The translations under genes were made by a program, and so were the position numbers. A DNA stretch of 19,578 bases from a virus: the UHGV virus genome UHGV-0149711. One strand, 5' to 3'. Under the pieces are notes generated by a model. It did no database searches. It was not told the origin of the DNA and saw only the letters and a list, made by a program, of their open reading frames with translations. This document shows, piece by piece, positions 16,302 to 19,557 of the stretch (the stretch's first letter is position 1; each line of letters begins with the position of its first letter).

Positions 16302-16306
16302 ATTGA

Positions 16307-16396
16307 TTATTTCCCTTCTGCTTGCTTATCCCATTCATCGCGGAATTTGGATGGGTTGTCGAAGCCCTGAGAGCCTGAACAAACTTTGATTACCAT
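16307..16396 (-). CDS. Putative 29-codon micro-ORF immediately upstream of the small terminase gene
   Basis: ATG at 16396..16394 overlaps the stop of the upstream Cys-rich ORF (TAATG). SD AAGGAG is 7 nt upstream. It encodes [29 protein letters not shown] and its stop is 5 nt before the gp3 ATG. Not in the ORF track (below its length cutoff). Confidence 0.25.
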
Positions 16397-16590
16397 TACT
16401 TAGCTCCTTTCTGCTTGCCTGTGTTTGATGTCGTTTCAGCAGCAGCCCCAGAGCAATTAACGCTACCCGCAACACCATATCCATAACCAGTCTTGAAGAA
16501 ATTATTGCCAGTAAATTGGTTAACAATCTTCCCGCAGCACGGGCAGCGTTGGCATTGGCAATAAGGGGATTGATTATTCCAGTGATACAT
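16396..16590 (-). CDS. Small Cys-rich / Gly-rich hypothetical protein (64 aa)
   Basis: I trimmed the track ORF 16396..16665 to the ATG at 16590, which has a strong SD (AGGAGA, 6-nt spacer). Product: MYHWNNQSPYCQCQRCPCCGKIVNQFTGNNFFKTGYGYGVAGSVNCSGAAAETTSNTGKQKGAK. It has no transmembrane segment and carries a CxCxxCxCC cluster. Confidence 0.4.
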   Translation of the reverse strand: MYHWNNQSPYCQCQRCPCCGKIVNQFTGNNFFKTGYGYGVAGSVNCSGAAAETTSNTGKQKGAK

Positions 16591-16964: not shown

Positions 16965-17207
16965 TCACACTCCGGTGGTGAACAGGTCTAACGCTTCCTT
17001 CGATTTACGCACCGCTTCGATAGTTCGGGTCGTGATATCTGAATTAGCGCCACCTGACTGGAAGTGAATTTTGAATAGCTCAAGCTTCAGCTCGTCAGTG
17101 CCAATGAATTGAAATGCTTCTTCTGCGGCTGCGTTCTGGTTCATGACCAGTTTGTAAATCTCTAACTGGAATTTCTGTTCTTCAGTCATGGGAATAATCT
17201 CTGCCAT
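16965..17207 (-). CDS. Hypothetical small protein (80 aa), first gene of the small-ORF string upstream of the terminase
   Basis: MAEIIPMTEEQKFQLEIYKLVMNQNAAAEEAFQFIGTDELKLELFKIHFQ... SD GGAG is 7 nt upstream. It is tightly coupled to the downstream HExxH ORF. Its size and position recall the small ORF I remember upstream of P22 gene 3, but I cannot verify this. Confidence 0.5.
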   Translation of the reverse strand: MAEIIPMTEEQKFQLEIYKLVMNQNAAAEEAFQFIGTDELKLELFKIHFQSGGANSDITTRTIEAVRKSKEALDLFTTGV

Positions 17208-17463
17208 TGTTGGCTCCGTTTATCCGTTAAAAGGGATATCAGTTAAGTTATCCCGTGTAGGGTATAAGCCATTGTCGAGACCACTCATTGAATGGCCTCT
17301 GCAATAACCGATGTCTTTCCATCAGTCCGCCACCACAAAGAATCTTTTTTGCCATAAGGCTGGAGGTTCATCTTTCAGTGGCTGCCAGTGTTATTTCCCC
17401 ACTTACTGGCTTGGGTTGTTTCGCGGTACTGCCGTAATGCAAAAACTGGATTAACCTGCGAAA

Positions 17464-17994
17464 TCACACCATTCCGGGCAAATACATTTGCACTTCATTT
17501 GCCGCTCTCTCACGTGCAACATGAAGCAATCTTTTTCGCCCACCAACGCCCCACTTAGCCATTTGGTTTGCGCACTGGCTTATCGCTTTGGTTTCAGTAT
17601 TGATGATGTGATCGATTCTATTCAGACGGGACATTGCGCCAACGCCGAGACGGACAACCGTTTTGAAAACTTCATAAACTTCGATTTCAAATTCCGGCTT
17701 AATCCATGCTGCATATCTGATTGCCAGAAGTTCAACACCCCACACACCTGGTTCTGCACCACCTTTGATTGTTTTAAGTGGTTGAATTTGTTCCAAAGTG
17801 CTTTTTTGCACTTTGGCCTCCAGTGCTTTTATGAAGCGTTTTATCTGCGCGCTACGCAAAAACTGGCTTGGGCGCTGTTGCTCTGTAGCCTCTCCATTTG
17901 CAACTGCTGCTGCATGGAGATCGTTTAAGTTGTAGCGTCCATCCTCATCAACACGAACGGACACACCATTGACAATAACTGTTGGGTACTTCAT
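17464..17994 (-). CDS. KilA-N domain-like protein (putative DNA-binding/regulatory accessory gene)
   Basis: 176 aa. The N-terminal pattern TVIVNGVSVRVDEDGRYNLNDLHAAAVANG fits the KilA-N/APSES-type signature (I..R.D.DGRY.LNDLH.A.G). It is flanked by non-coding DNA on both sides (17208-17463 and 17995-18339). Confidence 0.55.
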   Translation of the reverse strand: MKYPTVIVNGVSVRVDEDGRYNLNDLHAAAVANGEATEQQRPSQFLRSAQIKRFIKALEAKVQKSTLEQIQPLKTIKGGAEPGVWGVELLAIRYAAWIKPEFEIEVYEVFKTVVRLGVGAMSRLNRIDHIINTETKAISQCANQMAKWGVGGRKRLLHVARERAANEVQMYLPGMV

Positions 17995-18140
17995 CAGTGA
18001 TTACCTTTTAGTGATGAACCTTGTCACACAGGATTCCGGCCCACAGAAAGGCACCGATCACCAAACCGGCATCCTCAAGGGTCATCCTGAAAGGTTCTGT
18101 GTTCAGAAGTCGCGCGTGTGAAGCGCGTTTGTTGCAGATA

Positions 18141-18165
18141 TAAAAAAGCCCCGCGAATGCGAGGC
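18141..18165 (-). terminator. Putative rho-independent terminator downstream of Rz
   Basis: The minus strand reads GCCTCGC-ATTC-GCGGGGC followed by TTTTTTAT: a 7-bp GC-rich stem with one G.U pair and a U-run. A second GC hairpin (CGCGC-N7-GCGCG, 18111-18127) is adjacent. Confidence 0.55.
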
Positions 18166-18339
18166 TAAATCCTGGTGTTTGTGATGACTGGCTCTTATCT
18201 CAACGCAGCCCCTTACCGCGCGCCATATGCTCAATATCAAGCATCAGCAATGAGATGTTTAATCTGGATTCACTCCAGAAGTGATCACCACCCTGTCTAC
18301 AGAGCCAGATGTGAAGGATGATGAGTAAAATTATCGCTA

Positions 18340-18777
18340 TCATCGAAGGCATTGCGTCCTGATGTATTCCTGCAGGTAGTTAACCTGCGCGGTTATCTTG
18401 TCGATTCCACTTCGGAGACGGTAATAATTGAGTTCAGCATCTGCTGTAAGTCTTGGGCTTTCTCCATCGCCCATGCCGCTGGCTCCGGTCGTTGACTTTG
18501 CACAGGTGGCGGCGACTTGCAGGCGCTTACGACCAGCAGAAACATCAGCACGGAGACTTTCGATAGTAGCGTTAGCATCAGCAAGCTCCTTTGTGTATCT
18601 GGCGTCGAGTTCTGCTACGTCACGTTGACGCTTCTGCATGTCAGCGATTGTGGATGCGGCCTTATCTCGCTGCTCTTTGTAGGCGATGGCGTTATCACGG
18701 TAATGATTAACAGCCCATGACAGGCAGACGATGATGCAGATAATCAGAGCGGGGATAATCGCGGTTACTCTGCTCAT
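18340..18777 (-). CDS. Rz: Rz i-spanin (inner-membrane spanin subunit)
   Basis: 145 aa. [37 protein letters not shown] matches the lambda Rz N-terminus (N-terminal TM, coiled-coil periplasmic domain). The C-terminal half is divergent. It overlaps the R stop. Confidence 0.92.
18393..18584 (-). CDS. Rz1: Rz1 o-spanin (outer-membrane lipoprotein) embedded in Rz in the +1 frame
   Basis: 63-aa ORF lying wholly inside Rz. It has a signal peptide ending in a lipobox (VVSA-C) and a Pro-rich mature region ([14 protein letters not shown]...), which is the classic lambda Rz/Rz1 architecture. Confidence 0.8.
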
Positions 18778-19250
18778 ACCTCAATCTCTCTGACCGTTCC
18801 GCCCGCTTCTTTGAATTTTGCAATCAGGCTGTCAGCCTTATGCTCGAACTGACCATAACCAGCGCCCGGCAGTGAAGCCCAGATATTGCTGCAACGGTCG
18901 ATAGCCTGACGAATATCACCGCGATCAATCATCGGTAAAGCGCCACGCTCTTTAATCTGCTGCAATGCAACAGCATCCTGGCTTTTAGGAGAGAAGTCTT
19001 TCAGGCCAAGCTGCTTACGATAGGCATCCCACCAACGGGAAAGAAGCTGGTAACGTCCGGCTGCTGTTGATTTGAGTTTGGGGTTTAGCGTGACAAGTTT
19101 GCGAGGGTGATCGGAGTAATCAGTGAATAGCCCTCCTCCTACAATGACGTCATAACCATGATTTCTGGTTTTCTGACGTCCGTTATCAGTTCCCTCTGAC
19201 CACGCCAGCATATCGAGGAACGCCTTACGTTGATTATTGATTTCCACCAT
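18774..19250 (-). CDS. R: Endolysin, lambda R-type lytic transglycosylase
   Basis: 158 aa. [154 protein letters not shown] is essentially lambda R as recalled. Confidence 0.96.
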
Positions 19251-19557
19251 CTTCTACTCCGGCTTTTTTAGCAGCGAAGCGTTTGATAAGCGAACCTATC
19301 GAGTCAGTACCGATGTAGCCGATGAACACGCTCGTTATATAAGCGAGATTGCTACTTAGTCCGGCGAAGTCGAGAAGGTCACGAATGAACCAGGCGATAA
19401 TGGCGCACATCGTTGCGTCGATTACTGTTTTTGTAAACGCACCGCCATTATATCTGCCGCGAAGGTACGCCATTGCAAACGCAAGGATTGCCCCGATGCC
19501 TTGTTCCTTTGCCGCGAGAATGGCGGCCAACAGGTCATGTTTTTCTGGCATCTTCAT
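19234..19557 (-). CDS. S: Class I holin, lambda S-type (S107/S105 dual-start)
   Basis: 107 aa. [103 protein letters not shown] is near-identical to lambda S as recalled. The Met1-Lys2-Met3 dual-start motif is present, and the gene overlaps the R start as in lambda. Confidence 0.96.

Follow-up and report, generated by a model that had tools for sequence, protein, structure and literature searches.

Our analysis concerned the 19,578-nt virus genome UHGV-0149711 (the window, meaning this whole stretch of DNA at its full length), and within it the region between the Rz gene and the gene for a KilA-N protein. A GC-rich hairpin (H1) and the next ~110 nt are a conserved structured mRNA leader in front of the KilA-N gene, as judged from predicted folds and covariance modeling. 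We consider the existence of this RNA structure to be very probable. Together with an intrinsic terminator upstream (T), H1 and the longer hairpin behind it (H2) make up a unit, T-H1-H2, whose most likely role is that of a terminator-insulated, translation-silencing cassette head; we give this role a probability of about 0.6. An earlier note, made from the sequence alone, had seen just a "second GC hairpin" (18111-18127) in "non-coding DNA". The hairpin is indeed present, but as H1 of a pseudoknotted leader and not as another terminator, and what is new here is a widespread RNA leader motif.

Every gene of the window lies on the minus strand, and so do the RNA features described below. H1 (18111-18127) reads CGCGC-UUCACAC-GCGCG, with conserved stem pairs. 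It is followed by a single-stranded linker (18096-18110) that includes GAA (from 18097-18095), the 5' extension of the anti-Shine-Dalgarno strand. H2 (18003-18095) is a 93-nt irregular hairpin of -34.9 kcal/mol, supported by the minimum free energy fold, by covariation and by the match to a covariance model. From the base it contains helix P0 (ACCUUU/AAAGGU; 18095-18090 with 18008-18003), P1 (18088-18082 with 18017-18010), P2 (18080-18076 with 18023-18019) and P3 (18075-18071 with 18034-18030), and then a variable apical part (18070-18035). An asymmetric internal loop, GUGUGA, is present on the 3' side only (18024-18029) and is the pseudoknot (kissing) partner of the H1 loop UCACAC (18121-18116). 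The Shine-Dalgarno sequence of the KilA-N gene, AAAGG (18004-18008), is paired in P0 with the upstream CCUUU, and the AUG is at 17994.

Leader sequences were collected upstream of 80 KilA-N homologues, from 120 contigs with an invariant 15-mer of the GC hairpin, and downstream of 80 Rz homologues. They fell into 6-10 sequence classes that were ~60% alike, and each class folded alone into H1 and H2, with helices P0-P4, the 6-nt loop on the 3' side and the Shine-Dalgarno sequence in basal helix P0. A covariance model was built from 24 representatives and used to align 105 leaders, 88 of them distinct. The model matched the window once, at 17989-18131 (107.9 bits, E about 1e-24), while with filters off the rest reached at most 9 bits. 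One copy was found after Rz in 56 of 80 Rz-neighbor loci. Scanning genome contigs with the pattern GCGGGGCTTTTTT-N(10-25)-GCGC-N(5-9)-GCGC proved too loose, as 119 of 120 loci were G+C-rich noise; 100 of the 120 then served as a negative control. Across 752 kb of unrelated genome sequence preselected for a terminator and a GCGC hairpin, a single true copy scored above 25 bits (in Raoultella), and the next best score was 24.6. Sense-strand scores ranged from 108 to 141 bits, against ~20 bits for the reverse strand. G-U pairs were frequent, occurring for example in 53 sequences at one pair. Both observations place the structure on the mRNA strand.

The helices were well supported by compensatory changes. 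In the nested helices of the 88 distinct leaders, 94.4% of alignment cells were paired, compared with 80.9% after shuffling (0/500 shuffles as high), and changes on both sides were seen in 22 of 30 nested pairs. Double-change cells numbered 322, against 97 in the shuffles. When the partners were slid by 1-3 columns as a control, no more than 47% of cells were paired. RNAalifold recovered the same helices from the same alignment, with compensatory changes in 21 of 28 pairs. The H1 stem pairs were kept in 100% of cases, and two of the four carried compensatory changes. P2 appeared as CCUUG/CAAGG, GAGCCUG/CAGGCUC, GAACCUG/CAGGUUC and CCUUUG/CAAAGG, and the P0 strand that flanks the Shine-Dalgarno sequence varied with its partner as CCUUU/AAAGG, CCUA/UAGG and CCUUA/UAAGG.

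The covariation extended to the pseudoknot. In every class the H1 loop was complementary to the H2 internal loop despite differing sequences, giving 11 distinct combinations. The window and most other leaders use UCACAC/GUGUGA. Other codes are UCUCAC/GUGAGA, CGCAC/GUGCG, UCACG/CGUGA, UCGCA/UGCGA (epsilon34), CCGCA/UGCGG (P22 rha), UUCUCG/CGAGAA (HK97) and UCGCG/CGCGA, the last of which can be extended to UUCGCG/CGCGAA. Over the 11 combinations, cognate Watson-Crick helices averaged 5.3 bp and non-cognate ones 3.4 bp (permutation, 0/100,000). In fixed alignment columns 95% of the pseudoknot cells were paired and 47 double changes were counted, against 10.9 in shuffles (0/500), and slid registers reached at most 51%. 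Leaders of the window type and those of loci L042 and L230 have near-identical H2 backgrounds and different, matched kissing codes. Among loci with several copies (L042:925-3006; L049, L083, L127, L171, L116, L111, L139; L407), the codes differed in eight of nine. The idea that tandem copies must carry different codes was dropped, because a Shiga toxin (Stx) phage has two identical ones and differing codes are often expected by chance (P about 0.06); such a rule is not established.

No known RNA family accounted for the leader. A search of the window against Rfam 15 left 17989-18166 without a match, even when E values of up to 5 were allowed, and neither the window leader nor those of 16 related loci matched a family at gathering thresholds. 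In the Pistol self-cleaving ribozyme, the 5' strand of the P2/P3 internal loop carries the pseudoknot partner, the core is ~50 nt long and a G-U cleavage site is conserved. Pistol was rejected as an identity for the leader, as were other ribozymes, since the leader is ~125 nt long, has its loop partner on the 3' strand and lacks an Rfam match. Inspection by eye revealed no convincing or conserved LexA box, IHF site, P22 boxB/nut-like hairpin or CsrA site.

The predicted fold closes the ribosome-binding site of the KilA-N gene. In the ensemble of the window leader, the probability that the Shine-Dalgarno sequence is unpaired was 0.002, and it rose to 0.44 when the upstream sequence was shuffled. 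For 86 leaders the median was 0.003, compared with 0.33 for controls, and 71 of the 86 had values below 0.1. The sequence lies within the conserved helix P0, where the compensatory changes described above support the pairing. The anti-Shine-Dalgarno strand GAACCUU (18097-18091) matches the 3' strand of P2, AAGGUUC (18022-18016), as well as it matches the Shine-Dalgarno sequence. The leader might therefore be a two-state riboregulator, in which this strand pairs either with the Shine-Dalgarno sequence (OFF) or with the P2 3' strand (ON) and the pseudoknot or a factor sets the balance. When the Shine-Dalgarno sequence was forced open, the window fold used exactly this alternative helix, at a cost of +5.7 kcal/mol, and 34 of 88 leaders did the same. 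The alternative duplex was stronger than the anti-Shine-Dalgarno:Shine-Dalgarno duplex in all classes (-9.6 vs -5.1 kcal/mol), and in the window class it was also stronger than P2 itself. GA[A/G] covaried with [U/C]UC, with 15 double changes at one pair. However, the column test was moderate, with 79% of cells paired against 74% in shuffles and 61% in one slid register, and non-cognate duplexes were nearly as good (-8.0). The likeness may simply reflect two CCU-rich and two AGG-rich strands, and no ligand or factor is known. We regard a two-state switch as rather unlikely.

Upstream of the leader, the intrinsic terminator T occupies 18139-18166, with its stem-loop at 18166-18147 and its U-tract at 18146-18139. 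The stem, AGCCUCGC-AUUC-GCGGGGCU, has 8 bp, six of them G-C, with a stability of -13.6 kcal/mol, and is followed by UUUUUUAU. It was the top-ranked terminator-like site of the whole 19.6-kb window. The minus-strand terminator candidate of the earlier note is thus a real intrinsic-terminator motif, although its placement at 18141-18165 was off by a few bases. The record of phage epsilon34 already annotates the hairpin after Rz as a terminator. A hairpin with a T-run was found 4-17 nt upstream of the leader in 68 of 77 distinct flanks. Among these relatives the stem and loop sequences of the hairpin differed while the motif was kept, and the DNA further upstream was unrelated. On its 5' side the KilA-N module begins with T, which is also a mosaic joint. 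Both T and the GC hairpin stood far above chance, and both were structurally conserved across relatives with differing sequence.

The terminator had also led to the suggestions that late transcription is attenuated after the lysis genes and that the KilA-N gene may have its own promoter, as in a classic moron. In that case the gene would be expressed independently, for example in the lysogen, from a promoter in the 345-bp gap. The presence or absence of the gene and its exchange among related phages are in keeping with a moron, and so are the strong terminator motif and a perfect TATAAT between H1 and H2 in some relatives. However, a consensus scan revealed no sigma-70-like site on the minus strand between T and the ATG (17995-18166), so the proposed promoter was not borne out. 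The terminator stands upstream of the gene, not downstream, and no terminator-like site was found on the minus strand at 17208-17463 behind it. Of the moron description, the exchangeable gene is all that held. The TATAAT in the H1-H2 linkers was rejected as a promoter, as it is not conserved, is absent from the window and from most classes, and has neither a -35 element at 16-18 bp nor a TG extension. Moreover, the covariation of H2 with H1, which lies upstream of this would-be promoter, places the start of the functional RNA further upstream. An antisense promoter or RNA with H1 as a plus-strand terminator was also rejected, because no promoter was found and the covariation between the H1 loop and H2 is on the sense strand.

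Attenuation of late transcription was not supported by the gene order. The terminase, portal, scaffold, coat and tail genes all lie downstream of T on the same strand without a promoter, and all the virion genes therefore depend on transcription through T. In lambdoid late operons, one promoter is served by a Q-modified, terminator-resistant polymerase. The P22-like late operon has a single promoter antiterminated by Q/gp23 (bioRxiv 10.1101/2020.10.05.325894). With virion genes that lack a promoter in such an operon, T must be largely read through in lytic growth. In Stx phage Lyz12581Vzw the unit even stands between R and Rz, with just a weak hairpin and an interrupted T-run before it, which failed the terminator test. 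We thus regard a classic moron as very unlikely. The phage L genome paper noted that intra-operon terminators are common and unexplained in the P22-like late operon, and that they may stop transcription that is not antiterminated.

These observations suggest how a terminator-insulated, translation-silencing head might work. The T-H1-H2 unit would be transcribed only within the Q/gp23-antiterminated late operon. T would stop a polymerase without antitermination, and because it would block unmodified polymerase, the cargo gene would be insulated and silent in the lysogen. Late, antiterminated transcription would read through T, and in the read-through mRNA the compact H1-H2 fold would keep the ribosome-binding site closed. 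The potentially harmful DNA-binding protein would then be made only at a low level, or once the leader had been opened or processed. Translational repression, terminator read-through and relief of the block are the steps that we infer.

Several points weigh against this proposal. The translational repression is a thermodynamic prediction, and since opening the Shine-Dalgarno sequence costs only ~5.6 kcal/mol on average, the block may be mild. T is not obligatory, as three internal copies in tandem arrays have no upstream terminator. The proposal gives the pseudoknot no role. In the large alignment the leaders were fitted to the structure of the model, and this favors the pairing counts; the single-sequence folds and the slid-partner control mitigate the effect. 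All members come from freely recombining enterobacterial lambdoid phages, so the independent events number roughly 6-10 classes, far fewer than the sequences. Finally, an RNA of phage P22 that corresponds to H2, P22F, could be a trans-acting RNA or a nuclease-resistant decay remnant.

P22F is an 89-nt RNA (P22 21,301-21,389) that was seen by sequencing and reverse transcription PCR in infection (Noncoding RNA 2026;12:21, PMC13397905). Its sequence is exactly H2 of the P22 rha/ORF201 leader, with the 3' end falling 6 nt short of the rha AUG. The table and section 2.4 of the paper list P22F and a second RNA, P22G, as of unknown function, and suggest an IsrK-like trans role. By analogy with IsrK, the leader could be primarily a P22F-like RNA gene, released from the late transcript to regulate phage or host RNAs. 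The RNA accumulates in P22-infected cells and vesicles according to the same source, and the hairpin is very stable (-35 kcal/mol). However, the element has neither a promoter nor a terminator of its own and is always directly 5' of an open reading frame (ORF), whose Shine-Dalgarno sequence sits in the basal helix and whose Shine-Dalgarno flank covaries with the 5' strand. Nearly all of its bases are internally paired, leaving little seed, and the kissing partner H1 is outside the 89-nt species. A function in trans, which would in any case be compatible with the cis model, appeared unlikely as the primary one.

The ends of P22F also raised the possibility of a processing module, with H2 as an RNase III or RNase E entry site at which the late polycistron is cut and with T protecting the 3' end of the lysis mRNA. 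Cleavage could activate the cargo gene by freeing the Shine-Dalgarno sequence, or inactivate it by a cut between the Shine-Dalgarno sequence and the AUG. P22F is reported with defined ends inside the leader, starting between P0 and P1 and stopping 6 nt short of the AUG, and a terminator hairpin lies immediately upstream. With ~28 stacked bp and an internal loop, H2 is a long irregular duplex that resembles phage RNase III sites. Such sites occur in T7 and in the lambda N-leader. A conserved loop-loop pseudoknot, however, is not normally needed at RNase III sites, and the reported ends, which come from small-RNA reads, are approximate. A dedicated processing site seemed doubtful. The processing-site, trans-RNA and two-state readings are all variants compatible with a silencer. 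A more elaborate possibility, which we put forward only tentatively, is that the unit represents a widespread, hitherto unrecognized class of pseudoknotted riboregulators and acts as a portable conformational switch. The variable kissing-loop "address" and the alternative anti-Shine-Dalgarno pairing would gate translation of antirepressor-like and homing-endonuclease-like cassettes in late operons, with RNA processing or a factor of the phage or host as the trigger, and the excised H2 (P22F) might also act in trans.

The distribution of the unit is consistent with a portable cassette head. It precedes KilA-N genes, with or without ORF11CD3 or P63C, and Phage_pRha genes, and it also heads P22_AR_N antirepressor-like, T5orf172/MUG113 (GIY-YIG-like) and HNH_3+AP2 genes. 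It occurs in P22, HK97, epsilon34 and Stx phages. Iyer, Koonin and Aravind reportedly described, in 2002, a shuffled set of viral DNA-binding and nuclease domains, which we take to be the set that supplies the cargo types of the leader. Some contigs carry tandem arrays of two or three leader-cargo cassettes ~1 kb apart (L042). Two leaders were found in Stx phage Lyz12581Vzw: the first separates R from Ant within the lysis cassette, and the second lies between Rz and Rha. A blastn search with the terminator and leader of the window (17989-18170) found similar sequence in 1228 of 5426 complete E. coli genomes (~23%), some of the matches being partial. Positive genomes had leader-like sequence at a median of two places and a maximum of nine. 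The O157:H7 strains listed had 4-6 such places, before genes annotated as "phage antirepressor N-terminal domain". Within the papers that could be searched, no description of the fold, pseudoknot or family was found, and papers on BTP1 transcriptomics and on rha/IHF contained nothing on the leader element. The anti-sRNAs of enterohemorrhagic E. coli prophages (Tree et al. 2014) were rejected as the same element, as they are located at a different site.

The window itself is the late region of a P22-like (Lederbergvirus-type, lambdoid) prophage. Its genes include holin (19234-19557), lysozyme (18774-19250), Rz (18340-18777), the exchangeable KilA-N cargo gene (17464-17994, 176 aa, PF04383) and a DUF2560 gene (16965-17207; PF10834, E=1e-43), the homologue of P22 ORF80 and the conserved right-hand neighbor of the slot, with its Shine-Dalgarno sequence GGAG at 17216-17213. 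Further downstream are orf129, the small and large terminase genes, portal, scaffold, coat and the rest. Over the whole window the nearest sequenced phage was IME10 (83% coverage, 96.8% identity), and the 182 nt under study had a 100% match in the chromosome of E. coli PM4-5 (NZ_CP096834.1). In relatives, the flanks of the slot between the lysis and packaging genes are common and the enclosed genes differ. Rha, T5orf172/GIY-YIG-like, antirepressor or HNH genes take the place of KilA-N. Homology with Rz-linked relatives (CUS-3, Sf101, epsilon34) spanned 18111-18339, and homology with KilA-N-linked relatives (ST64B, ST104, Stx phages, Klebsiella phages) spanned 17995-18165. Their common part, 18111-18165, is exactly the terminator and the GC hairpin. 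These sequence comparisons indicated that the KilA-N gene is one interchangeable accessory cargo in this slot.

The KilA-N ORF at 17464-17994 was present as first described, and its protein matched Pfam PF04383 over residues 9-113 with 65.7 bits (E=4e-18), well above the gathering cut-off of 23.8. It also matched phrog_129, "transcriptional regulator", with E=4e-60, and homologues 89-99% identical were found in 80 IMG/VR contigs. By eye, the C-terminal ~50 residues (17464-17630; …AKWGVGGRKRLL…LPGM) resembled the ORF11CD3 of the Rha/KilA-N cargo of relatives, while Pfam reported no ORF11CD3 domain for the window protein. The first ~8 codons are common to the KilA-N cargo (MKYPTVIVNG; 17971-17994) and the Rha cargo (MNYPTIVNGIDF; L094 and other Rha-type loci), although their domains are different, which places the mosaic joint within the coding sequence, shortly after the start.

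Both gaps described around the gene were confirmed when measured between ORFs of at least 60 aa: 345 bp on the Rz side (17995-18339) and 256 bp on the terminase side (17208-17463). The Rz-side gap is not wholly free of annotation, as a 50-aa ORF (18200-18352, minus strand) that overlaps the Rz stop is recorded as a gene in epsilon34. Loose packing is also not peculiar to this gene, although both gaps are real, as there are other loose stretches in the window, for example 16302-16573. This 272-bp stretch separates orf129 from the small terminase gene and holds a 29-aa ORF similar to a small ORF inserted elsewhere in relatives (L054). ST64T-type phages have the Dec gene there, and no remnant of it was found at 16302-16573 of the window.

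The gaps could instead encode small proteins: a 25-aa ORF in the leader (18008-18085), the 50-aa ORF, and ORFs of 22-35 aa in 17208-17463. Both the 25-aa and the 50-aa ORF have PHROG matches, and GenBank records annotate ORFs like them. The 50-aa ORF (phrog_11822) corresponds to epsilon34 gene 67 and Sf6 gene 65, is hydrophobic at its N-terminus and stops 34 nt short of the terminator stem. It was open in 54 of 56 homologous loci. However, its substitutions were 22 non-synonymous and 8 synonymous, with no third-position bias. They look neutral, and selection on the protein is not indicated by this comparison. In other classes the 25-aa ORF has early stops or lacks its stop codon, and it was rejected as a toxin-like or leader peptide, as it is not conserved across leaders. 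No frame was open in more than 27 of 88 leaders, so neither it nor the annotated "hypothetical proteins" of the leader are conserved genes. Leader substitutions keep base pairs, not codons, and insertions cut 17208-17463 at several points. Small proteins are thus a highly improbable explanation of the gaps. The "hypothetical protein" ORFs that cover the leader (18008-18085; L001:3561-3725; L407:2530-2649; phrog_16173) are probably mis-annotated structured RNA.

The spacer downstream of the cargo gene (17208-17463) is also conserved and structured, with a predicted RNA fold z-score of -3.5. From 17435 to 17208 it was ~98% identical behind KilA-N, Rha and GIY-YIG-like genes in HK97, epsilon34, P22 and many others. 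Conserved linker segments follow one another in it, and insertion slots that are empty in the window lie at ~17309 and at 17222-17248 (related loci L019, L065, L059, L055, L329, L396, L005). In relatives the slot at ~17309 holds a 118-126-aa gene, DUF551-like genes or small ORFs. The 118-126-aa gene is probably one that some records annotate as Gp49 family or anti-CRISPR. In P22, 631 bp are inserted at 17222-17248, and SE1-type phages diverge at 17256. Inserts in these slots often close with their own terminator. In the neighboring slot of one contig (L329:2822-2884), an int-alpA motif (RF02996, 45.1 bits, gathering 35.8) heads a DUF551-like cassette, so other cassettes here carry a different structured leader.

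Within the spacer, the hairpin at 17309-17267 had three compensatory pairs in one variant. The stretch 17451-17380 resembled the 3' half of the Rfam family Proteo-phage-1 (RF03044), scoring 20.9 bits against a gathering score of 42. The consensus AAGCCGGU...ACCGGCAGCC is replaced there by AAGCCAGU...ACUGGCAGCC, a compensatory difference, and the stem of the second hairpin is missing. P22G is an abundant 204-nt sense-strand RNA of P22 (PMC13397905), and it is the P22 counterpart of the spacer from 17437 to about 17290. The inverted repeat GGGATA-N10-TATCCC, to which attention had been drawn in the leader of the ORF80 homologue, is present at 17233-17254, but 38% of shuffled 256-bp sequences contain such a repeat, and its significance there did not stand. 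As a regulatory hairpin it was rejected, being at chance level and invariant in relatives without compensatory change.

Lambdoid phages are the textbook case of gene regulation, yet their rha, kilA-N and ant-like genes are without known control and mostly without known function. The leader offers a testable handle on how phages silence potentially toxic accessory genes inside an essential operon. It is a candidate explanation for intra-operon terminators and for P22F and P22G, and it provides a defined boundary element for mosaic cargo exchange. It also corrects annotation, since several "hypothetical protein" calls sit on it. If it were a true switch, it would represent a new riboregulator class in medically relevant prophages, among them the Shiga-toxin phages of E. 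coli O157:H7.

Several known systems share features with the leader. In the repZ/repA leaders of IncI-alpha and IncB plasmids, a hairpin loop pairs with a distal sequence near a sequestered Shine-Dalgarno sequence. That pseudoknot forms only after translation of a leader peptide, activates translation and is blocked by an antisense RNA. In contrast, no conserved leader ORF and no antisense promoter were found here. In phage T4, hairpins that sequester the ribosome-binding site keep selfish or accessory genes inside essential operons, such as the free-standing and intron homing-endonuclease genes mobE and I-TevI, translationally quiet. Each of these short hairpins is specific to its gene, and late promoters within it or behind it provide a bypass. 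The likeness extends to the cargo, as some leader cargo genes are HNH-AP2 and GIY-YIG-like, whereas the element described here is a portable unit of 140 nt, with a pseudoknot and an upstream terminator, that is common to unrelated genes.

The leader and the spacer also overlap with P22F and P22G (PMC13397905), by which both stretches exist as stable sense-strand RNAs during P22 infection. The table and section 2.4 of that paper give no secondary structure, pseudoknot, Shine-Dalgarno pairing, upstream H1 or terminator, or family distribution. At the IsrK-orf45-anrP locus of Gifsy-1 (PLoS Genet 2016, PMC4825925), a terminator read-through transcript before an antirepressor-like gene is likewise silenced by an inhibitory fold, and an alternative fold is active. 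That locus differs in lying just after a Q-like gene, in having its own promoter and in lacking a pseudoknot between a loop and an internal loop; its activation also differs, involving a short trans RNA and an upstream 45-codon ORF. Rfam gave no IsrK match in the window. Proteo-phage-1 (RF03044) and int-alpA (RF02996) are similar as structured RNAs beside prophage accessory genes, and neither matches T-H1-H2. The intra-operon terminators and moron slots of lambdoid phages (Juhala et al. 2000; the epsilon34 and phage L papers) share the combination of variable cargo and terminator. The slot between Rz and the small terminase gene is a different one from the "ant moron" of those papers; its gene has no promoter of its own, and its terminator belongs to a larger conserved RNA unit.

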